Shown here: positions 3,121 through 20,649 of the stretch, piece after piece
How the letters are laid out: every line of letters starts with the position of its first letter
Numbering within the stretch: the first letter of the stretch is position 1
The notes under the pieces: generated by a model
The model's input: the letters and a program-made list of their open reading frames with translations, nothing else
Databases searched by the model: none
What the model was told of the DNA's origin: nothing
Origin: Bacteroidales bacterium
GTDB taxonomy: Bacteria > Bacteroidota > Bacteroidia > Bacteroidales > UBA12077
NCBI GenBank assembly: GCA_028282585.1
Contig: JANQHR010000053.1
Span: 1 to 23,558 of the forward strand
Reading direction: 5' to 3'
DNA: 23,558 bases
Made by a program: the position numbers and the translations under genes

Positions 3121-4338
3121 ATGACACAGCAAATATCAGATAAAAAGTATAAAGAAAATCAATCTGATAATCAACCCAAAAATGAAACAATGATAAAGGA
3201 TAATCCTGAACATTCTCAGGTTGAATCTTTTTTTAAAAAATCGCAGGAAGAAAATATAAAGCTTTCTGATAAAGTGGAAAGTCTTGAGCAAGCACAAGAA
3301 ATAATTTTTGAGCAATTTAAAACTTTGGAGCTTCAAAAACTAGAATTAGAAAAACAACAAAAAAAACTGGAAGAAGATAGCGTCAAGTTTCGAGGAAGAA
3401 CGATCGAACTTTTTGGTAAAATGATCGATCTGAAAAAAGCCAAAAAGACTATTAGTCAACAAAATGAACAATTGAAATTGCAACAAAATGAAATTGAAAA
3501 ACAGCAAATTTTATTGGAAAATTCTAACCAAAAATTCAGGGAAAGAACCATCGAATTATTTGGAAAAATGATTGATCTCAAAAAGGCAAAAAAAACGATA
3601 AGCCAACAAAAAGAAGAAATTGAAAATCATAGGGAGCAACTAAAAGAACTAAATGCAAGTAAGGATAGATTTTTTTCAATTATTGCGCACGACTTAAAAA
3701 ATCCTATTGCCGGATTTTTAAATCTTACCGAAATCTTAACTAATAATTTTGATGTATTCTCCGAAAACGAAAGCAAGGAATTCATCGAGGTTATGAACCA
3801 GGCTTCTAAACAATTGTATAATCTATTAGAAAATCTTTTACAGTGGTCGAGAGCTCAAACCGGAAGAATCACTTATGAACCTCAGTTTATTTCGATTAAA
3901 AAAATGGTTGATGAAACCATTGACGCATTAATGATAAATATTGAAAATAAAAGTATTAAAATTAACTTAATTATCGATGATAAAACCATTGCTTATGTTG
4001 ATGAAAATATGATAACTACAGTTATTAGGAATCTATTAAGCAATGCAATAAAATTTACTAATCATAATGGATCAATAAATATTCGATGTCAGGAATCTGG
4101 TAACTTTATTGAAACATCTGTTAGTGATAATGGTATCGGCATCTCTAAAGAGAATCAGAAAAAACTTTTCCGTATTGATCAAAGTGTAACAACGGAAGGA
4201 ACTTCTTCTGAAAAGGGTACCGGACTGGGTTTAATACTTTGCAAAGAGTTTGTAGAAAAGAATGGTGGAGAAATCAGGGTAGAAAGCGAAGTTAATAAAG
4301 GAGCCTCGTTCATATTTACTTTACCGAAAAAGTGTTAG
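3121..4338 (+). CDS. Soluble sensor histidine kinase with N-terminal coiled-coil tandem repeat
   Basis: H-box FFSIIAHDLKNP, N-box NLLSNAIKFT, G1 DNGIGI and G2 GTGLGL. No TM segment and no recognisable PAS/GAF domain. The N-terminal ~170 aa are Q/E/K-rich coiled coil. Confidence 0.9.
   Translation: MTQQISDKKYKENQSDNQPKNETMIKDNPEHSQVESFFKKSQEENIKLSDKVESLEQAQEIIFEQFKTLELQKLELEKQQKKLEEDSVKFRGRTIELFGKMIDLKKAKKTISQQNEQLKLQQNEIEKQQILLENSNQKFRERTIELFGKMIDLKKAKKTISQQKEEIENHREQLKELNASKDRFFSIIAHDLKNPIAGFLNLTEILTNNFDVFSENESKEFIEVMNQASKQLYNLLENLLQWSRAQTGRITYEPQFISIKKMVDETIDALMINIENKSIKINLIIDDKTIAYVDENMITTVIRNLLSNAIKFTNHNGSINIRCQESGNFIETSVSDNGIGISKENQKKLFRIDQSVTTEGTSSEKGTGLGLILCKEFVEKNGGEIRVESEVNKGASFIFTLPKKC
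3385..3609 (+). repeat. Intragenic tandem repeat, 147-nt (49-aa) period
   Basis: KFRGRTIELFGKMIDLKKAKKTISQQ (3385-3462) and KFRERTIELFGKMIDLKKAKKTISQQ (3532-3609). Confidence 0.95.
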
Positions 4339-4432: not shown

Positions 4433-6202
4433 ATGACTAAGTATCTAAAAATATATTTATTCTCAGTTTTAATATTCTCAATTTTAAGTTGTTCAGCGCA
4501 ATCATCCCAAATAGATAGTTTAATAAATATCCTTGAAGTTCAAAAAAGTGAAGAAAAAATGGCAACCTTGCAAAAGTTGTGTAGGGAGTACATAAATAAT
4601 TCGGTTGAGGATGTTATTAAATACGCAAATGAACTGTTAATTCTTGCAGAACAAGAGAGCAATCTTGAATATATTGATAAAGCTCATTCTTTTTTAGGTG
4701 AAGCTTATTTCTATATGAATGAACTTGATAAATCTATTGAGTATTTTGAAAAATACTTAGAAACCAAAATTTTACAAGAAGATATAGCCGGAATTGGCGA
4801 TGCATATAATAATCTTGGAATTGTTTACAGGTATATTGAAAAACATGAAACAGCTATCCAATATTATCTTGAAAGCCTTGCAATAAAAGAAAGGTTAAAA
4901 GATACAGCTGGATTAAGCAGCACACTGAATAACATTGGTGTACTATATTTTTATATGGGTAATTATAACGAAGCTCTTGATTATTATATAAGGTCTTATA
5001 ACCTGGAAATCAAAATAGGAAATAAATCCGGAATTGCAACATCTTTACTAAATATTGGGGAAGTTCATAGTTATTTAAATAATTATTCTGATGCATTAAG
5101 TCATTTTAACAGAAGTATAGAAATTTCAAAGAGTATCGAAGATATGCACACTTTGGAAGTTAATTACCAATGTATGTATGAAATGTACAAAAGACAAGTT
5201 AATTTTCAGAAAGCACTTTATTATCATGAGTTATATACAGAAATAAGAAACGATAGACTAAGCCAAGAATCCAGAAAAGAAATTGCTGAATTAGAAATAA
5301 AACATGAAACAAGTAAAAAAGAAAAGGAAATTGAATTGCTAAATAAACAAAACGAACTTAATAGAATTATAATCTTTATACTTTCAATTGCTTTTTTCGT
5401 ATTTATTTTCCTTTTGATTCTGCTTTACAAACAAGGCCAAGTTAAGAAGAAGACTTTAGAGCTGCTTTCAGAAAAGAATGAAGAGATAACTCTTCAATCC
5501 GAAATATTAAATAAATTGAATAATACAAAAGATAAATTCTTTTCAATTATATCTCATGATTTAAAAGGAGCAATTGGAGGATTCTTATCACAAACAGAAT
5601 TTCTAGCTGAAGACTTTAAATCCCTTCCTTCTGATGATATGCATGATTTAATAATTAAAATGAAATATTCATCGAAAAGACTATATGCTCTTCTGGAAAA
5701 CTTACTGGAATGGTCACGTACACAAACTGATAGCATTAAATTACAACCTGAAAAGTCCAATTTATTGGAACTGGTTGAAAATATACTTCTGATTTTTAAA
5801 GAATCAATGAAAGAAAAGGGAATTAAGCCAATCGTTAAAGTCGATTCAAGCTTACATATTTTTGCCGATATTAATATGGTTAGCACGGTTTTCAGAAACC
5901 TGATTACCAATGCAATTAAATTCTCTCACCCAAATACCAGCATTACAATCCATTCTTATAGTTCAAGTGGTTTTATACTTACAGAAGTAATTGATCACGG
6001 TATTGGTATAACTGATAAAAACCAAAAGAAACTTTTTAGAATTGACCATAGCTTTTCAAGTTATGGAACAAGTAACGAAAGCGGATCTGGCCTTGGATTA
6101 ATTATTTGTAAAGAATTTATTGAGCTAAACCAGGGTAAAATCTGGGTAGACAGTAAAATCGGCGAAGGTTCTTCCTTTAAATTTACTCTAAAAAAAGCAT
6201 AA
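4433..6202 (+). CDS. Membrane sensor histidine kinase with extracytoplasmic TPR domain
   Basis: Signal peptide, then TPR motifs (AYNNLGIVY..., TLNNIGVLY..., SLLNIGEVH...) and a TM helix IIIFILSIAFFVFIFLLILLY. H-box FFSIISHDLKGA, NLITNAIKFS, DHGIGI, GSGLGL. Confidence 0.92.
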   Translation: MTKYLKIYLFSVLIFSILSCSAQSSQIDSLINILEVQKSEEKMATLQKLCREYINNSVEDVIKYANELLILAEQESNLEYIDKAHSFLGEAYFYMNELDKSIEYFEKYLETKILQEDIAGIGDAYNNLGIVYRYIEKHETAIQYYLESLAIKERLKDTAGLSSTLNNIGVLYFYMGNYNEALDYYIRSYNLEIKIGNKSGIATSLLNIGEVHSYLNNYSDALSHFNRSIEISKSIEDMHTLEVNYQCMYEMYKRQVNFQKALYYHELYTEIRNDRLSQESRKEIAELEIKHETSKKEKEIELLNKQNELNRIIIFILSIAFFVFIFLLILLYKQGQVKKKTLELLSEKNEEITLQSEILNKLNNTKDKFFSIISHDLKGAIGGFLSQTEFLAEDFKSLPSDDMHDLIIKMKYSSKRLYALLENLLEWSRTQTDSIKLQPEKSNLLELVENILLIFKESMKEKGIKPIVKVDSSLHIFADINMVSTVFRNLITNAIKFSHPNTSITIHSYSSSGFILTEVIDHGIGITDKNQKKLFRIDHSFSSYGTSNESGSGLGLIICKEFIELNQGKIWVDSKIGEGSSFKFTLKKA

Positions 6203-6292
6203 ACCTTACAATCAATAGCATAGCGTTACACCGTAAGTTTTAAATAATCTGCAATATTAAAATCTGAAATTTCTTAGTCAAAAAATAAGCTA

Positions 6293-6331
6293 CGGAAATA
6301 TCTTATTTCCGAACGAAGTTTTAGTAAAACT
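6293..6331. promoter_or_regulatory. Two adjacent perfect palindromes (candidate operator sites or weak terminator)
   Basis: CGGAAATA-tct-TATTTCCG (6293-6311) and AGTTTTA-g-TAAAACT (6317-6331), between the TPR kinase stop and the peptide locus. Confidence 0.35.
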
Positions 6332-6481
6332 ATACGTTTAAATTATTTTATCCCTTTTTTAAAAATTTAGTTTTATGCAAATTCAAGATTTGTTTCTAAT
6401 TTAAATGTTCAAATTTGAGATTCTATAAGTATCTATTTCCTAATAACCAATCTCAATGTTAAACTTTTAAAATTAACTATT

Positions 6482-6694
6482 TTGAAAAACTCGCTAATAT
6501 TTATTCTAAAAAAATAAAGTAAGGAAAACAACATCAACTTTACTCCAGAAATACTTGTAAACGTTAGATCATTCCCAAGGGAATATGATACGCCCGACTT
6601 GCTTTATTTCATTGATGATTTAATTGAAGAAACTGAGCAAGAAAAAGTAGCAGTAGTTTCTGAAGTTGAAAATACAGAGGTAAAAATGAAATAA
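6482..6694 (+). pseudogene. Remnant of a C39-like/VKOR/thioredoxin-fold peptide-maturation gene (internally deleted)
   Basis: The frame from TTG 6482 reads MKNSLIFILKK*SKENNINFTPEILVNVRSFPREYDTPDLLYFIDDLIEETEQEKVAVVSEVENTEVKMK*, with an in-frame TAA at 6515-6517. INFTPEILVNxRSFPxEY...L.YFI..L matches, from memory, the DsbA-like C-terminus (cis-Pro TP loop) of Bacteroidota 'vitamin K epoxide reductase family' proteins found beside GG-leader peptides. Confidence 0.65.
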
Positions 6695-6708
6695 AAACTT
6701 ATATAAAT

Positions 6709-6742
6709 AACCGAAGCCTTGACGGTTTCAAAATGATCAAGG
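6709..6742 (+). promoter_or_regulatory. Predicted H-type RNA pseudoknot in the 5' leader of the peptide gene
   Basis: S1: AACCG 6709-6713 pairs with CGGTT 6723-6727. S2: CCTTGA 6717-6722 pairs with TCAAGG 6737-6742. Loops are 3, 0 and 9 nt, followed by 23 AT-rich nt to the ATG. Confidence 0.6.
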
Positions 6743-6765
6743 ATTATTAACTAAAAATTATCAAA

Positions 6766-6921
6766 ATGAAAAATTTGAAAAAGTTAAAAGGAGCAAAAAT
6801 GCTAGGTAAAAAGGAGCAAAAAGCCGTTAAAGGTGGACTTTTCCCATGTCTTAACGGGCACTGTTTAATTGGTTACACGTGTATTAATGGATACTGTGTT
6901 GAAGATGAATATCAACCCTAA
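6766..6921 (+). CDS. Double-glycine-leader, Cys-rich peptide precursor (bacteriocin/RiPP-like), 51 aa; absent from the ORF track
   Basis: MKNLKKLKGAKMLGKKEQKAVKGG / LFPCLNGHCLIGYTCINGYCVEDEYQP*. The leader fits the L-x-x-x-E-x-x-x-[VI]-x-G-G class. A-rich initiation region (TAAAAATTATCAAAATG). Confidence 0.85.
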   Translation: MKNLKKLKGAKMLGKKEQKAVKGGLFPCLNGHCLIGYTCINGYCVEDEYQP

Positions 6922-6932
6922 TTTTCGTCGAA

Positions 6933-7060
6933 ATGAGAAAACTAAAAGATTCAAATAGGGCAAAAACTCATACTAAAACGCAATGAAAGGCTATCAGGGA
7001 TGGAGTGATAAAATGCTTAAAAGTATCTTCTGGTTTCATAATACTAAAACTGTGTTATAA
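6933..7060 (+). pseudogene. Decayed paralogous double-glycine peptide precursor (3' end uncertain)
   Basis: MRKLKDSNRAKTHTKTQ*KAIRDG / VIKCLKVSSGFIILKLCY... aligns without gaps to the intact 24-aa leader (9 identities). In-frame TGA at 6984-6986, and GG changed to DG. Confidence 0.65.
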
Positions 7061-7075
7061 AGTTATAAAAACAAA

Positions 7076-7109
7076 AAATATCGCGGGGTTCATGAACCCT
7101 GTGATATTT
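7076..7109. terminator. Intrinsic terminator hairpin between the convergent peptide locus and rlmB, likely bidirectional
   Basis: AAATATCGCGGGGTT-catg-AACCCTGTGATATTT forms a 15-bp stem with two G:U pairs on the + strand. The A-tract on the left gives a U-tract for the minus strand. Confidence 0.7.
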
Positions 7110-7146
7110 CCATTTACACAGTTTTTAGGATACTACCAAAAATAAT

Positions 7147-9211: not shown

Positions 9212-11152
9212 TTAAATTCTTTCTTGTTTCAATTCTTCAAGAATCTCCGTAAGTTCTTCCCACTTTTTCATTTCATTCTCAACCAGCTTTTTTAGCTCAT
9301 CATATTTAGAAAATAATGTAGGATCTTCATTCATTATATTCGGGTCAGATAGAATTGAACTTATTCTCTCCATTTCTGCCTCAGACTCTTCGATTCTTGC
9401 TTCACAATCCTTTACATTACTTTCTGCTTTTCTTATCTTTTTATCCAGCTCTTTACGTTCAAGGTATGATTGCTTATTAACAGAACCTTTTTTCTCTTTG
9501 TTTTGAACTACCTGCTTTTCTTTTTTTTCTAATTCCTTAAGGTTTTCCAATTTTCTTGTTCTCAAGAAATCATATATTCCACCTATATGTTGTTTAATCT
9601 TTTTATCTCGAAATTCATAGACCTTATCAATCAGTCCATCCAGAAACTCCCTGTCATGAGATACCAAAATTAAAGTTCCTTCGAAATCTTTTAGCGCTTT
9701 TTTAAGGATATCCTTCGAACGCATATCCAAATGATTGGTTGGCTCATCAAGCACTAACAAATTATACGGTTTCAATAATAATTTTGCCATTGATAAACGT
9801 GATCGTTCACCTCCCGATAAAACTTTCACTTTCTTATCAATATCCTCTCCTCCGAAAAGGAATGCGCCTAAAATATCTCTAATTTTAAGTCTAATATCAC
9901 CAACTGCAACATCGTCAATTGTTTGAAATACCGTTTTATTTTCATCCAGTAATTCATCCTGATTTTGAGCGAAATAACCTACTGAAACATTGTGACCAAT
10001 TTTCAATTCACCGTTATAATCCAAATCACCCACAATTATACGCGACAATGTTGTTTTCCCTTCTCCATTTCTTCCAACAAAAGCAATTTTCTCACCGCGG
10101 GTAACTGTCAGTTCAATATCTTTAAATACTGTTAAATCGCCATACTTTTTTGCCATATCTTTGGTCCGTACAACTAAATCTCCTGATCGAGGTGCAGGTG
10201 GAAACTTTATATTTATTGAACTTGTATCTAAATCATCAACTTCAATTCGTTCTATTTTTTCCAATTGTTTAATTCGAGATTGCACTTGAACTGCCTTTGT
10301 TGCCTTGTATCGAAAGCGTTCTATAAACTCTTCAGTTTCCTCAATCATTTTTTGCTGATTTCGATAGGCTGCTAATTGCTGTTCCCTTCTCTCCTTTCTC
10401 AAAACCTCATATTTTGAATATGGAGCATCATAATCATAGATCTTACCCATTGATATTTCTACCGTTCTTTTGGTTATATTATCCAAAAATGCACGGTCGT
10501 GAGAAATCAGAACAACTGCTCCCGGATAGTCTTTCAAAAAATCTTCAAACCATTGAATTGCTTCAATATCCAAATGATTTGTAGGCTCGTCTAAGAGTAA
10601 AACATTTGGTTTTTGAAGTAAGATTTTTGCCAGCTCAATTCGCATTCGCCATCCACCGCTAAACTCTGAAGTTGGTCGAGCAAAATCTGTCGATTTAAAC
10701 CCAAGGCCAACCAATGTTTGCTCAATACTTGCATCAATTGATCCTCCTCCTAATAACTGATAACGATCATTTGCTTCCGTCAAATCATGAATTAACCGGG
10801 AATATTCCGAAGATTCATAATCTGTTCTATCAGCTAACTGACTATTAATTTGTTTTATTTTCTCATCCAGTTTTAATACCTCTGAAAAAGCTTCGCGAGC
10901 TTCGTCAAAAACATTTCGTTGATCTTTAATAGTCATATTTTGAGGCAAATAACCAATAGTAACATCAGATGGAACAATTACGGTCCCTTTGCTTGGCGCC
11001 TGTAAACCCATAAATATTCTTAAGAGTGTAGATTTTCCTGCACCATTCTTCCCAACTAATCCAATTCTATCTTTTGGATTAATTAAAAACGTTACATCAT
11101 TAAATAACTGAAATGCTCCAAATTCAACGCTTAACTGCTCAACAGAAATCAT
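9212..11152 (-). CDS. ABC-F family ribosome-associated ATPase
   Basis: Two ABC domains (GKNGAGKST / FSGGW / LLLDEPTNHLD and GRNGEGKTT / LSGGE / VLDEPTNHLD), an interdomain linker, a C-terminal coiled coil and no TM segments. Start placed at ATG 11152 because the longer TTG start overlaps the promoter box. Confidence 0.93.
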   Translation of the reverse strand: MISVEQLSVEFGAFQLFNDVTFLINPKDRIGLVGKNGAGKSTLLRIFMGLQAPSKGTVIVPSDVTIGYLPQNMTIKDQRNVFDEAREAFSEVLKLDEKIKQINSQLADRTDYESSEYSRLIHDLTEANDRYQLLGGGSIDASIEQTLVGLGFKSTDFARPTSEFSGGWRMRIELAKILLQKPNVLLLDEPTNHLDIEAIQWFEDFLKDYPGAVVLISHDRAFLDNITKRTVEISMGKIYDYDAPYSKYEVLRKERREQQLAAYRNQQKMIEETEEFIERFRYKATKAVQVQSRIKQLEKIERIEVDDLDTSSINIKFPPAPRSGDLVVRTKDMAKKYGDLTVFKDIELTVTRGEKIAFVGRNGEGKTTLSRIIVGDLDYNGELKIGHNVSVGYFAQNQDELLDENKTVFQTIDDVAVGDIRLKIRDILGAFLFGGEDIDKKVKVLSGGERSRLSMAKLLLKPYNLLVLDEPTNHLDMRSKDILKKALKDFEGTLILVSHDREFLDGLIDKVYEFRDKKIKQHIGGIYDFLRTRKLENLKELEKKEKQVVQNKEKKGSVNKQSYLERKELDKKIRKAESNVKDCEARIEESEAEMERISSILSDPNIMNEDPTLFSKYDELKKLVENEMKKWEELTEILEELKQERI

Positions 11153-16353: not shown

Positions 16354-17433
16354 TTACTTTGGAACTTTGATTTTATCCTCTTCTGCTATCCCTGATAAAA
16401 CCTCTATATTTATTCCATCGGATAAACCAACTTCAACAACTCGCTTTTCATAAATTTGAGGCCCGCTTTCAATTTCTACAAAAACAGAATCATTCTCAAA
16501 TACCAAAAGGCTTTCCTCAACAGCCAATACACTATCCTTTCTTGCAAGAACAATATCAGCGTTTGCACTATATCCGGCACGTACAAAAAAATCTTCTTTT
16601 AATTCAACCGCCGCTTTTATTTCAAACTGAATGGCTCCGTTTTCTTCTATCCCTTTAGGCGAAATATATTCTAAATATGCATTAAACTGCGTTTCTTCTA
16701 TGGCTCCAATGGTAAGTAAAAGATTCATTCCTGTCCTTATTTTACCAACTTCGGTTTCATCAACTTTACCTTCAAAAATCATTTCTCCCATATCAGCAAC
16801 AACTGCAATAGTAGTTCCATCATTAAAAGTGTTGCTTTCAATTACCGAATTTCCCTGCTCAACAGGAACATCTAAAACCATTCCTTCAATAGTTGAGCGA
16901 ATCAATGTATTCGATGAAGCCTCAGAATCTTTAGTAACACCTTCCTTTATTAATTGCAGATTATTTTCTGCTGCATTTAATTCTGATTTAGCTCTATTTA
17001 AAGAAATTTCATACTCCTGAAATTCTGCAGCCGGTATAACACCTTCATCAAAAATTTTCTTTTGTCTTTCGTGAACCCTTTGGGCATCTTCATAGTCGAT
17101 CCTGGCCTGGTCTAACCGAGCCTCTGCATTATTTAGGTTAATCATATTTGGAATGATCCTTACCTTGGCTATTAAATCTCCATTTTTAACTATATCTCCG
17201 GGCTCAAGGTATATTTCTTCAATTATACCTGAAACTTGTGGTTTAATTTCAATTTCTTTTCGTGGAACCACTGAACCTGTTGCTACGGTTTTCTTTACAA
17301 TATCAGTTACAAAAGCTGTTTTGGTTTCATAAACAACCGGTTTTGGTTTGGATTTTTGATATAAATAATAAATTGTAGCACCGAATATTCCAACTATAAT
17401 TGTAATTAGTGTAATTCTTAAAACTTTCTTCAT
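16354..17433 (-). CDS. Efflux periplasmic adaptor (MacA/HlyD-like membrane fusion protein)
   Basis: N-terminal anchor, ATGSVVP...IKPQVSGII..I...PGD.V..GD lipoyl half-motif, an alpha-hairpin, IRSTIEGMV and VDETEVGKI. Confidence 0.9.
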   Translation of the reverse strand: MKKVLRITLITIIVGIFGATIYYLYQKSKPKPVVYETKTAFVTDIVKKTVATGSVVPRKEIEIKPQVSGIIEEIYLEPGDIVKNGDLIAKVRIIPNMINLNNAEARLDQARIDYEDAQRVHERQKKIFDEGVIPAAEFQEYEISLNRAKSELNAAENNLQLIKEGVTKDSEASSNTLIRSTIEGMVLDVPVEQGNSVIESNTFNDGTTIAVVADMGEMIFEGKVDETEVGKIRTGMNLLLTIGAIEETQFNAYLEYISPKGIEENGAIQFEIKAAVELKEDFFVRAGYSANADIVLARKDSVLAVEESLLVFENDSVFVEIESGPQIYEKRVVEVGLSDGINIEVLSGIAEEDKIKVPK

Positions 17434-17451
17434 TTTATTTAAACATTTAAA

Positions 17452-18711
17452 TTATTCACTTCTAAGAGCATCTATGGGTTTAACATTAATTGCTCTTTTT
17501 GCAGGTACAAATCCTGCAAAAGCTCCTGTAATTATTAATATTATTAATGCTGTTATCGCTATTTGAAAATTTACCTCAGGATTTCTAAACATATTGGATT
17601 CGACTTCGAATTTTATCAAAGCAAAGTTTACTAATTCTATTAACCCAATTCCGATTACCAATCCGATATATCCTGCAAATGAGGTTAAGAATACAGATTC
17701 AGTAATAATCTGGCTTACAATTTTGACCGGTGTCGCTCCAATTGCTCGTTGAATACCAATTTCTTTTGTTCGTTCTTTAACTATTACCAGCATAATGTTA
17801 CTAACTCCTATGACACCGGCAAGTAACGTCCCGATTCCAACCACCCAAATCAATCCGTCAATTCCCATAAAAACGCCTTTCATTTGCTTAAATTCCTTTT
17901 CAACATTAAAATGCCCAATCGCCTGATCATCTTCGGGAGCAATCTTGTGTCTTTGTTTTAATATCCTGATTACTTTATCTTCAATTTTTGAAACGGAAAT
18001 ATGGTCCTCTGCTGTTATTGCATAAACTCCAACCATATCACCATAGTTATATGTTTTTTGTAATGTTGTAAATGGCATAAAAATAACCTGATTATCTCTT
18101 TCAGCTTGCTCTCCGGACTTTTTAGAAGAAAAAATTCCAACGACCTTGAAATATACGCCTTGAATTCTTATATATTCTCCAATTGGGTTTTCGTCGGGAT
18201 TAAACAATGATTCTTGCACTCTTGTACCAATAACAACTATTTTTCTTTTCTGCTCAATGTCTTTATCATTTATAAAACGTCCGGTCTCAATATTAACAGG
18301 GTCGATCAGGTTCATATCAGGATAATCTCCAAGTATTTGAAAAGCTCCTGAGTTTAGTCCTCGTATTACATTGTCTCCGGCAAAACTTGCACCGCGTAAA
18401 CGTGGTGCCAAATATTTGATCCCCGATACAGTTTGTTTAATTGCTCTAGTATCATCATTGTTGTAATTAAAAAAACGTCCCTTGGTAAATCCTTTGTATT
18501 CAACAGTAGTTCTTTGAGCCCAAATAAATACGCTATTTGTGGCAAAATCCCCAAAACCTTGAGTAACTCCGTTTTGAAGTCCCTGGCCTGAACCTAGCAT
18601 TACAATTAACATAAAAATTCCCCAGAATACTCCAAAAGCAGTTAAAAAGCTCCTTAACTTATTTTGTTTCAGAGAATAAAATATTTCTTGCCATTTATCT
18701 AAATCAAACAT
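17452..18711 (-). CDS. ABC transporter permease (MacB/FtsX-like)
   Basis: NKLRSFLTAFGVFWGIFML, a periplasmic domain, GVSNIMLVIVKERTKEIGIQRAIGA and PAKRAINVKPIDALRSE. Confidence 0.92.
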   Translation of the reverse strand: MFDLDKWQEIFYSLKQNKLRSFLTAFGVFWGIFMLIVMLGSGQGLQNGVTQGFGDFATNSVFIWAQRTTVEYKGFTKGRFFNYNNDDTRAIKQTVSGIKYLAPRLRGASFAGDNVIRGLNSGAFQILGDYPDMNLIDPVNIETGRFINDKDIEQKRKIVVIGTRVQESLFNPDENPIGEYIRIQGVYFKVVGIFSSKKSGEQAERDNQVIFMPFTTLQKTYNYGDMVGVYAITAEDHISVSKIEDKVIRILKQRHKIAPEDDQAIGHFNVEKEFKQMKGVFMGIDGLIWVVGIGTLLAGVIGVSNIMLVIVKERTKEIGIQRAIGATPVKIVSQIITESVFLTSFAGYIGLVIGIGLIELVNFALIKFEVESNMFRNPEVNFQIAITALIILIITGAFAGFVPAKRAINVKPIDALRSE

Positions 18712-18722
18712 AAATCATTCTT

Positions 18723-19964
18723 TTATTCATCTCGTAAAGCCTCTATAGGCCTAATATTAGCAGCTTTAATTGCGGGAAACATCCCTGCAAATGTTCCCGA
18801 GAATATTAATAATATTGTTGCACTAATAGCAACTCTCAAATCTGCCTGCGGATTAACGAAAAATTCGATAGGAGGTAATGCCCGCGATAATAACTCCATT
18901 AATCCAATACCTAAAACCAGTCCGACATAACCGGCAAATGCAGTAATTAAAATCGATTCTGTAATAATTGTACTTACTATGGAATATGGTGTAGCTCCTA
19001 TTGCCTTTCTTACACCGATTTCTTTTGTCCGTTCTTTTACAACAATTATCATAATATTACTAACACCAACAATACCTGCAATAATGGTTCCGATCCCGAC
19101 TATCCAAACAAATAACCTGATTCCTGCAAAAAGATCCATAGTTCTTTTATAATCTTCCGCTTTGTTCCAAATGTTGATAGCACGCCTGTCTTCTACATCA
19201 AATTTATGTACTGCTGAAAATTGTTTTCGTATTTGTTCCACCATTTTCTCAACCTCATCGAGCGTCTGATCACCGGTTGTCAGCGATATTTGATTAATTT
19301 CATTATCACCCATAAATACCCTTTGTGCAGTATAAATTGGAATATAGACTCTTCTTTGCTCATCCTCGGGACCTTCATCTGAAAAAATTCCTACAACCTT
19401 AAAAGGTACACCACTAATTTTTATATATGAGCCAACAGCCTTTTCTTTGTCACCATTTTTGAACAAAGCATCGTGAACTATGGTGCTAATTGCAACCACT
19501 TTTCTATACTTTTGTACATCAATCTCGTTTAAAAATCTCCCTTCTACAATTTGCACATCTTTTATAATTGCATAACTGGGATGGCAAGGACTTATGGTAA
19601 AATTACCGTATTCGTTTTTATATGAAATCGTATTATTTATATCAAACCATGAGCGAGCAGAGATAACATCTATTCCATCTATTGTGGTTTTAACTCTTTC
19701 GTAATCTTCATTCGTAAATTTAATATCTCTTCCCGGTTTGTAACCCTGAAAAGGTATTGTAGTTCTTCCCGCACTAATCCAGATTCCGTTATTTACAGAT
19801 CCTTTAAATTGATTTCTTACACCATTTTCCAAACCTTTTCCGGATCCTAACAGAATGATTAACATAAATATTCCCCAAGCCACACTGAATCCGGTTAGAA
19901 AAGTACGCAACCTGTTTTTCTTAATGGTTGCAAATATTTCTTGCCATTTATCTAAATCAAACAT
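18723..19964 (-). CDS. ABC transporter permease (MacB/FtsX-like)
   Basis: NRLRTFLTGFSVAWGIFML, GVSNIMIIVVKERTKEIGVRKAIGA and IRPIEALRDE. Start placed at ATG 19964 (MFDLDKWQEIF, same as the paralog), overlapping the ATPase gene by 8 nt. Confidence 0.92.
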   Translation of the reverse strand: MFDLDKWQEIFATIKKNRLRTFLTGFSVAWGIFMLIILLGSGKGLENGVRNQFKGSVNNGIWISAGRTTIPFQGYKPGRDIKFTNEDYERVKTTIDGIDVISARSWFDINNTISYKNEYGNFTISPCHPSYAIIKDVQIVEGRFLNEIDVQKYRKVVAISTIVHDALFKNGDKEKAVGSYIKISGVPFKVVGIFSDEGPEDEQRRVYIPIYTAQRVFMGDNEINQISLTTGDQTLDEVEKMVEQIRKQFSAVHKFDVEDRRAINIWNKAEDYKRTMDLFAGIRLFVWIVGIGTIIAGIVGVSNIMIIVVKERTKEIGVRKAIGATPYSIVSTIITESILITAFAGYVGLVLGIGLMELLSRALPPIEFFVNPQADLRVAISATILLIFSGTFAGMFPAIKAANIRPIEALRDE

Positions 19965-20649
19965 AAGACATCTCTTTTCTAATATGCTCAGACTCAATAA
20001 TACCGTCTTTTAAGTAAATAATCCGGTCTGTTTTTTCCGATATATCTTTTTCGTGTGTAACAATAATCATGGTTATACCCGTTTTATTGATTTCACGAAA
20101 AAGGTCCATTACCTCAATTGATGTTGCAGAATCCAAAGCTCCGGTTGGCTCATCTGCAAGAATTACTTTTGGCTTACTTATCATTGCCCTGGCAATAGCT
20201 ACTCTCTGCTTTTGCCCTCCTGATAATTCATTTGGCATATGTTCTGCCCATTCTCTGAGTCCCATTCGGTCAAGATATTCCAAGGCTATTTTATTTCTCT
20301 TCTTTCTGCTTATGCCTTGATAATAAAGCGGTAATGCAACATTTTCCATTGCATTTTTGAATGTTATAAGATTAAATGACTGAAAAACAAATCCAAGCAT
20401 ATTATTTCTGTAATGAGCCGCTTTTTTTTCCGATAAATTACTGATTAAGGTATTATTTAATTTATAAGAACCTTTATCATAAGAATCTAATATTCCAAGA
20501 ATATTTAGTAAAGTAGATTTACCGGATCCTGAAGAACCCATTATTGATACTAACTCTCCTTGCTCTATTTTCAAATCCAATCCCTTTAGCACATGTAATT
20601 CGTTATTACCTGTGAAATATGATTTATGTAAGCCTTGTAATTCTAACAT
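19957..20649 (-). CDS. ABC transporter ATP-binding protein (MacB/LolD-like)
   Basis: GSSGSGKST, GFVFQSFNL, LSGGQKQRVAIARA, ILADEPTGALD and VTHE. Confidence 0.94.
   Translation of the reverse strand: MLELQGLHKSYFTGNNELHVLKGLDLKIEQGELVSIMGSSGSGKSTLLNILGILDSYDKGSYKLNNTLISNLSEKKAAHYRNNMLGFVFQSFNLITFKNAMENVALPLYYQGISRKKRNKIALEYLDRMGLREWAEHMPNELSGGQKQRVAIARAMISKPKVILADEPTGALDSATSIEVMDLFREINKTGITMIIVTHEKDISEKTDRIIYLKDGIIESEHIRKEMSYV

Follow-up and report, generated by a model that had tools for sequence, protein, structure and literature searches.

The 23,558-nucleotide contig JANQHR010000053.1 of a Bacteroidales bacterium (assembly GCA_028282585.1, positions 1 to 23,558 of the forward strand), which we refer to as the window, carries at positions 6766–6921 of its forward strand a 51-codon gene for the precursor of a small peptide with a double-glycine (GG) leader and four cysteines in its core. 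Sequence comparison places this gene in a large, so far uncharacterised family of Bacteroidota peptides. We consider it probable, judging from the sequences, that the precursors of this family undergo leader-guided disulfide formation and are exported by a C39-peptidase ATP-binding cassette (ABC) transporter to act as likely bacteriocin-like peptides, and that the copy in the window is an orphan in a decaying locus that needs helper proteins supplied in trans.

The translation of 6766–6921 is MKNLKKLKGAKMLGKKEQKAVKGGLFPCLNGHCLIGYTCINGYCVEDEYQP, followed by a stop codon at 6919–6921. The leader, encoded by 6766–6837, comprises 24 residues, is basic and ends in VKGG, and the core, encoded by 6838–6918, comprises 27 residues and has an acidic tail; this assignment draws on the sequence, its translation, the family alignment, a hidden Markov model (HMM) and the ratio of non-synonymous to synonymous divergence (dN/dS). 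The cysteines at positions 28, 33, 39 and 44 of the precursor are spaced C-x4-C-x5-C-x4-C and form two CxNGxC units 11 residues apart, and the core contains no serine and a single threonine. At 51 codons the open reading frame (ORF) lies under the 60-amino-acid cutoff of the main ORF list, and it is present in the short-ORF listing. A first-pass annotation made from the sequence alone had described the ORF, its leader and core, the cysteine spacing, the CxNGxC pair and the acidic tail, and every one of these details proved correct against the sequence and its translation.

A word-indexed search returned a single close homologue, P0002, at 84% identity, while a phmmer search of 1,835,955,588 representatives returned 55 proteins at E≤0.001. 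Forty-nine of these are peptides of 46–85 amino acids that align with the window peptide from their first residues through leader and core, and are the homologous GG-leader peptides for which the first-pass annotation had advised a search. The other six are larger proteins aligned through core-only repeats, with generic EGF-like, EB or DUF7107-type cysteine repeats or no Pfam domain, and were set aside as sharing a mini-fold motif rather than functional homology. The family alignment has 48 rows, made up of 46 of the 49 relatives, the window peptide (P0001) and P0002; P0025, P0029 and P0033 were omitted because their called starts add N-terminal extensions. Residues G23, G24 and C44 are invariant in this alignment and K2, L13, E17, Q18, C28, C33 and C39 are conserved in at least 90% of rows, so that all four cysteines are kept at or above this level, as expected of the real double-glycine-leader precursor that had been proposed.

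An HMM built from the 46 relatives, with P0001 and P0002 left out, gives the window ORF a score of 81.6 bits (E 9e-26), and none of the other 59 window ORFs with an ATG start and 30–130 amino acids matches it at E≤10. Homology and context thus give good support to 6766–6921 being a genuine gene, with a product predicted to be a secreted peptide of the disulfide type. An ORF that had arisen by chance in AT-rich intergenic DNA might also be only 51 codons long, and eight other ORFs of 23–46 amino acids do lie within about 1 kb, but the homology, the conservation and the purifying selection described below refute that explanation.

Counted over 114 unique family peptides, the leader is 24 amino acids long in 82. 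The number of core cysteines is four in 70 peptides, six in 27, five in eight, seven in five, two in one and zero in three, which makes the count even in 98 of the 114, and C-x(4-8)-C-x5-C-x4-C is the predominant framework. Of the 114, only the window peptide and its orthologue in locus L001 (described below) have two CxNGxC units, and both asparagines are substituted in P0002. The tandem CxNGxC arrangement with its Asn-Gly turns, which the first-pass annotation had singled out as the notable trait, is on these alignments lineage-specific and no trait of the family. The six family peptides that we looked up are unnamed in their source databases, and one further cluster member is named "hypothetical protein". 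Our literature search, whose coverage did not extend to subscription journals, found no paper on the family, on the fusion protein described below or on the element upstream of the peptide genes.

To compare the surroundings of family genes we used 18 related loci, cited here by L numbers, that came from one scan of species-representative genomes with a 10-row alignment of close leaders as the query. All are labelled Bacteroidota apart from L003, a 2.7-kb contig of a metagenome-assembled genome (MAG) labelled Mycoplasmataceae. The whole of this contig is 2,686 nucleotides, it holds six Bacteroidota-type family peptides together with the upstream element, and it is close to L004, whose source is a Bacteroidales MAG in the same series; L003 is probably mis-binned. 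Scanning the small ORFs of the loci and of the window with an HMM yielded 68 family peptides, of which one is the window's and the other 67 belong to the loci; most lie in tandem arrays with hypervariable cores.

Pfam scans covered 104 neighbouring ORFs and the L001 protein. A VKOR-family protein of 518–547 amino acids adjoins the peptides in 12 of the 18 loci; the six loci that lack it include L003, which is a 2.7-kb contig, and L004, which begins at the peptides. Seven loci have a C39-peptidase ABC exporter, about 730 amino acids long, next to the peptides; an HlyD_3 protein directly follows it in six of these seven, the next ORF in L008 being outside the scan. The disulfide formation and C39-ABC export that the first-pass annotation had proposed for the window peptide are therefore what the context of the family predicts. 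Large CHAT-domain/TPR proteins were also seen next to the peptide genes in three loci (L004, L007 and L013).

The VKOR-family protein is a fusion. The L001 example (L001:8288–9931, 547 amino acids) matches Peptidase_C39 at residues 9–125, VKOR at 166–289 and Thioredoxin_4 at 373–522 in Pfam. When 13 fusion proteins, that of L001 and 12 homologues from L002–L015, were aligned with seven exporter C39 domains, the catalytic cysteine motif and the catalytic histidine of C39 were found to be replaced in all 13, and the VKOR loop cysteine pair, the membrane CxxC and the thioredoxin CxxC to be retained in all 13. An AlphaFold2 (AF2) model of the L001 fusion has a mean predicted local distance difference test score (pLDDT) of 79.5 and six membrane helices, and in Foldseek it matches oxidoreductases of the DsbA/BdbD/ScsC type (E 8e-6 and up) and PCAT1 (E 1e-4). 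With six helices the C39-like domain, the VKOR cysteine loop, the CxxC and the thioredoxin domain would all lie on one side of the membrane. Lysine and arginine number 12–17 on this shared side and 0–2 on the opposite side, by a crude hydropathy assignment in the seven proteins with six helices and with no canonical VKOR as control, which under the positive-inside rule makes the shared side the cytoplasm. The model thus suggests that the redox centres and the C39-like domain of the fusion face the cytoplasm, in an inverted VKOR.

From these elements a pathway can be proposed. The 24-residue double-glycine leader would be recognised by C39-type domains, as the related loci imply, and a membrane oxidoreductase that combines an inactive C39-like domain with VKOR and thioredoxin/DsbA-like domains would join the four core cysteines into two disulfides. 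The C39-peptidase ABC exporter and its HlyD-type adaptor would then cut after the two glycines and secrete a 27-residue β-hairpin peptide, whose extracellular role would most likely be that of a bacteriocin-like competitor. Expression would probably involve a pseudoknot-like RNA element upstream of the ATG, and the surviving peptide of the window would be served in trans by paralogous helpers elsewhere in the genome. The AF2 model of the peptide, made from the 48-row alignment, has a pLDDT of 74 overall and of 80–86 at residues 31–50, with a hairpin formed by residues 37–40 and 43–46 and short helices in the leader.

The cysteines could instead be used for radical S-adenosylmethionine (radical-SAM) thioether or other enzymatic crosslinks, making the product a modified RiPP (ribosomally synthesised and post-translationally modified peptide). 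Radical-SAM genes lie near family peptides in three of the 18 loci (L002, L008 and L012), and TIGR04149, the model of radical-SAM-modified RiPP of Bacteroidota, weakly matches (E≤1) eight of 48 relatives, so the first-pass annotation was fair in leaving such crosslinking open. The window, however, has no radical-SAM gene, its peptide is unmatched by TIGR04149, the radical-SAM gene of L008 is preceded by two GG peptides of another type that seem to be its own substrates, and the commonest neighbour of the family is the VKOR/thioredoxin fusion. We regard the crosslinked product as very unlikely. A lanthipeptide had been thought unlikely from the start, and this agrees with a core that has one threonine and no serine and with a window in which no LanB/C, LanM, LanKC or LanL enzyme is encoded.

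The closest characterised analogues are the bacteroidetocins, proposed as class IIf bacteriocins of Bacteroidales that kill via BamA (PMC6671954, PMC8546649). According to PMC6671954 these are four-cysteine peptides with GG leaders, encoded in four-gene clusters that include a thiol oxidoreductase and an ABC/peptidase protein; both proteins are needed for activity, deletion of the oxidoreductase attenuated it, and the authors argue that the oxidoreductase is required because Bacteroides lacks general disulfide machinery. Bacteroidetocins and the present family have in common the phylum Bacteroidota, the double-glycine leader and the four cysteines. They differ in the leader, 15–16 amino acids in bacteroidetocins as against 24 here, and in the mature peptide, 42–48 against 27; both lengths here fall outside those given in PMC6671954 for class IIf, the mature peptides of which have similarly placed cysteines. 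The bacteroidetocin clusters described there also contain a gene for a protein with five transmembrane segments (PMC6671954), and no search for such a gene was made here. The fusion architecture and the RNA element are demonstrated for the present family, and bacteroidetocins were compared with it through their published description.

With class II double-glycine bacteriocins and class II microcins the family shares a leader that ends in GG. The leader pattern L-S-x-x-E-x-x-x-[IV]-x-G-G, which we take to be the consensus of the double-glycine class, is present in the family, and the carnobacteriocin B2 precursor (Protein Data Bank entry 1ry3) weakly matches the family profile (E 0.0098) in a region covering the leader and the first part of the core. 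C39-ABC and HlyD-type exporter genes are another likeness to class II systems, with the C39-ABC gene present in seven of the 18 loci. The family differs from class II in its phylum, in cores that are much smaller and neutral to acidic, and in a VKOR-type oxidoreductase that bears a C39-like domain. The sublancin 168 locus of Bacillus subtilis brings its own disulfide oxidoreductases, BdbA and BdbB, and the principle of a bacteriocin locus with its own disulfide-forming enzyme would be shared with the present family. By fold, the fusion's thioredoxin domain matches BdbD of B. subtilis (E 9.7e-6), but the quinone-linked enzyme here is of the VKOR and not the DsbB type, and it shares one polypeptide with its thioredoxin partner and with a domain resembling a leader-binding one. 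The pediocin-like class IIa motif YGNGVxC, as quoted in PMC6671954, is absent from the core.

The window itself has lost the oxidoreductase gene. Locus L001, from a Bacteroidales MAG, is syntenic with the window, with 12 flanking proteins 84–96% identical and the peptide 82% identical, and its TPR kinase and peptide genes are separated by the intact 547-amino-acid fusion gene, where the window has stumps only. By blastn, window positions 6150–6515 align to L001 7957–8321 at 91.8% identity and 6508–6800 align to L001 9745–10035 at 89.5%, so the interior of the fusion gene, about 1.42 kb, has been deleted in the window, with the junction in A-runs at about 6508–6515. The 5′ stump (6482–6517, forward strand, as compared with L001:8288–9931) consists of a TTG start, 11 codons and a stop, and the 3′ stump (6518–6694, forward strand) of the last 58 codons and the stop, out of context and untranslatable from the start; the latter is identical at 161 of 179 nucleotides to L001 9753–9931. 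The first-pass annotation had guessed at a partner of the VKOR/DsbA type for the peptide, and a wrecked gene of just this kind lies directly upstream of it.

On the other side of the peptide gene is a second, decayed paralogue (6933–7145, forward strand) with a leader-like start, an in-frame TGA at 6984–6986 and a core frame that departs from L001; its L001 counterpart lies inside the ORF L001:10122–10316 (HMM E 3.3e-9). The L001 copy is irregular as well, its leader ending in SG and the usual ATG being out of frame. Between the TPR-kinase gene and the former fusion gene, the intergenic region 6203–6481 (forward strand) is identical to L001 8010–8288 at 252 of 279 nucleotides and is probably a retained promoter region that still reads towards the peptide gene, so that transcription towards the peptide may persist. 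Since the oxidoreductase gene is deleted, the paralogue is a pseudogene and a C39 exporter is absent from the 23.5 kb, the peptide, an orphan in a decaying locus, could work only through helpers encoded elsewhere in the genome, and the decay makes its present-day function uncertain.

The first-pass annotation had also stated that the window encodes no intact transporter. This stands for exporters of the C39 type but not overall, as an intact MacB-type ABC system with an ATPase, two FtsX-type permeases and an HlyD-family adaptor occupies 16354–20649 on the reverse strand. The MacB-type system is 10 kb from the peptide gene, is syntenic in L001 as far as the end of that locus, and shows no evident link to the peptide; its ATPase resembles the darobactin-export ATPase model at a score below the cutoff.

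Selection on the peptide gene was assessed against L001. The peptide differs from its orthologue by 14 synonymous and nine non-synonymous changes, giving dS 0.77, dN 0.076 and omega (dN/dS) 0.10, with similar values in leader and core, and neutrality is rejected (binomial p 1.1e-5). Neighbouring genes have omega values of 0.035–0.10. In the 3′ stump there are five synonymous and 11 non-synonymous differences, with an omega of 0.50 that is indistinguishable from neutral (p 0.18), and the contrast between the peptide and the stump is suggestive (Fisher p 0.105). The dS of the stump relative to L001 is itself low, at 0.165 as against 0.5–0.9 in neighbouring genes, which could reflect a recent deletion together with chance, or constraint on the stump as the upstream region of the peptide.

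These data bear on whether the peptide gene is a recently orphaned, non-functional relic, its ORF open only for want of time since the locus was broken. The 1.42 kb missing from the adjacent oxidoreductase gene, the in-frame stop in the second paralogue and the lack of a C39 exporter in 23.5 kb all fit such a relic, as does the attenuation of bacteroidetocin activity on deletion of the oxidoreductase (PMC6671954). Against it, the window keeps intact the ORF, its GG site and four cysteines, the 5′ element and the promoter region further upstream, and omega is 0.10 in the peptide and 0.50 in the dead stump, a difference that, as noted, is suggestive only. In addition L007, a second peptide locus on a relative's contig, has neither fusion nor exporter among ORFs scanned from 4.5 kb upstream to 5.6 kb downstream, so service in trans may be normal for the family. 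A functionless relic is, on balance, an improbable description of the gene.

Several observations nevertheless weigh against a functional, exported, bacteriocin-like disulfide peptide. The signal of purifying selection spans the entire divergence from L001 and is compatible with a recent loss of function. None of the 17 long ORFs of the window encodes a C39 exporter, a VKOR or a radical-SAM enzyme, and no gene for immunity was recognised. The site of disulfide formation is left ambiguous by the predicted topology of the fusion. The net charge of family cores runs from −6 to +2, neutral to acidic, unlike that of many cationic bacteriocins. When the AF2 peptide model was compared with the Protein Data Bank by Foldseek nothing was found at E≤0.001, the best match having E 1.9; the top weak matches are knottin-like peptides. 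Among curated leader models, NF047798 (leader_Chryseo, bacteriocin-like protein) scores the peptide at 9.8 bits (E 0.92), below its cutoff of 23.5, TIGR04149, which the first-pass annotation had recommended for this purpose, gives no match at E≤10, and the Pfam model PF14406 (Bacteroid_pep) gives none at E≤0.01 or at E≤1.

Across the family the same models fare better. NF047798, NF047792 (CCPGW family), TIGR04149 and PF14406 give weak matches at E≤1 in 31, 12, 8 and 16 of the 48 relatives respectively, the window peptide itself giving no match to NF047792, and the leaders of the family are evidently related to those of the curated Bacteroidota GG-leader models. PADLOC returned no match for the peptide or for the fusion protein.

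Blastn comparisons revealed that the DNA directly upstream of the peptide genes is conserved across loci and across the copies within arrays, and inspection by eye and by script identified in it two stems that interleave and keep a constant spacing from the ATG. In the window this pseudoknot-like 5′ element is 34 nucleotides long (6709–6742, forward strand) and ends 23 nucleotides before the ATG. Stem S1 pairs 6709–6713 with 6723–6727, stem S2 pairs 6717–6722 with 6737–6742, and 6728–6736 form a conserved loop. This is a comparative structure; folding 6700–6775 as a single sequence yields another, nested structure (−9.8 kcal/mol, z −2.25), over which the comparative one was preferred. A tiny upstream ORF starting at an ATG in the conserved loop was considered and dropped, as by eye this ATG is absent from several copies including the closest, L001.

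In an alignment of 41 copies of the element, 95.3% of cells are paired, compared with 79.8% after shuffling (a level that none of 500 shuffles reaches) and 24–48% when the partners are slid, although the paired percentage is biased because the copies were preselected for pairing by script. Eleven of the 12 pairs are altered on both sides in this alignment. A covariance model, R1, that encodes stem 2 only was run on both strands of 333,675 nucleotides (the window and the 18 loci) and gave 47 matches at E<0.1, all on the peptide strand. Forty-six of these stop 16–23 nucleotides short of a family peptide's ATG, counted from where the model match ends, so that the element is carried by 46 of 65 plus-strand family genes, in both Bacteroidales and Flavobacteriia. 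The single match in the window is at 6700–6750 (56.3 bits, E 1.4e-8).

The 47th match precedes a GG-leader peptide of another type beside a radical-SAM gene. In this arrangement (L008:10440–10883) the element is followed by one such peptide at 10506–10667 and a second at 10710–10883, and then by radical-SAM and CAAX-type protease genes.

Stem 1 was scored on the alignment made by R1, which is blind to it: 96.6% of its cells are paired and four of its five pairs are altered on both sides, with the changes mostly falling into two sequence types and hence representing few independent events. There are 39 G-U pairs to 8 A-C pairs, and the nine inner pairs alone have 29 to 1, in cells that are not independent; this excess of G-U favours a sense-strand RNA over a DNA palindrome. 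Rfam gave no match in the window at gathering thresholds, and searches of 6600–6800, L003 and L011 returned only sub-threshold chance matches; no family fits the element. Our guess is that the element controls the translation, processing or stability of individual cistrons. A short inverted repeat, TTCTTTCGCAAAGAA or TTCTTGCAAGAA, occurs about 10 nucleotides upstream of many element copies (e.g., in L003, L004, L006, L010, L012, L013 and L016). The window lacks this repeat, which might serve as a protein site or form an additional hairpin.

A more far-reaching proposal would join these parts into a phylum-wide system, in which an H-type pseudoknot RNA controls individual cistrons and the fusion, as an inverted VKOR, serves as a cytoplasmic leader-guided disulfide synthase that completes the disulfides before export. 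We put this combination forward tentatively, as a possibility that has somewhat less in its favour than against it.

Two sensor histidine kinase genes, at 3121–4338 and at 4433–6202 (the latter with TPR repeats), lie directly upstream on the forward strand, are syntenic in L001 and are possible regulators of the peptide locus. The two kinases are paralogues, with 47% identity over their C-terminal 250 residues as measured through the L001 orthologues. Regulators also stand upstream of the peptides elsewhere, with HisKA ORFs and stand-alone LytTR proteins in L006, L007, L008 and L012, other kinases in L001, L002 and L004, and AraC-type proteins in L014–L018. This raises the question of whether the peptide is a secreted signal, a pheromone sensed by the adjacent histidine kinases, with its own locus or others under its control. 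Gram-positive class II bacteriocin loci have pheromone, kinase and LytTR circuits to which these regulator-bearing peptide loci bear a likeness.

The two kinases in the window and L001, and the kinase- or LytTR-type regulators in L002, L004, L006, L007, L008 and L012, would suit such a signal, as would cores that are not cationic and the retention of a single copy under selection while its neighbours decayed. On the other hand, the window showed no gene for a response regulator, the kinase gene lies 563 nucleotides from the peptide gene with a former gene in between, tandem arrays with hypervariable cores are better suited to competition peptides, and a search of the literature on peptide signalling, or on LytTR with double-glycine peptides, in Bacteroidetes found nothing relevant. 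A signalling role is rather unlikely in our estimate, and the bacteriocin-like competitor remains the function we favour.

The G+C content of the window is about 31%, and its genes include the Bacteroidota markers of a type IX secretion system (T9SS) sorting domain, a GWxTD protein, FimS-like kinases and a FISUMP domain. A transfer RNA scan of the window found none. The Bacteroidota −7 box TAnnTTTG has 32 matches against 38.9 expected, none of them on the forward strand between 5864 and 9779, and a scan for sigma-70-type promoters gave one weak site (6719–6747) within the element, for which no promoter is claimed. Between the decayed paralogue and rlmB, which is convergent with it, a GC-rich hairpin (GGGTTC ... 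GAACCC, 7083–7100) was seen by eye but is unlisted by the consensus scan; it may act as a terminator for both.

Exploration of Bacteroidota for peptide bacteriocins and signals has hardly gone beyond the bacteroidetocins, and the gene described here points to a family that runs to hundreds of hypervariable disulfide mini-peptides in Bacteroidales and Flavobacteriia. A recognisable set of genes accompanies them, for the C39-like/VKOR/thioredoxin fusion, the C39-ABC exporter and sensors or regulators, which would offer a route to mine environmental and gut Bacteroidota for narrow-spectrum antimicrobials or signals. The fusion would be a natural case for leader-guided disulfide formation, and the compact, covariation-supported RNA element a marker for unannotated peptide genes. 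In the present genome the locus has been caught in the middle of its decay.

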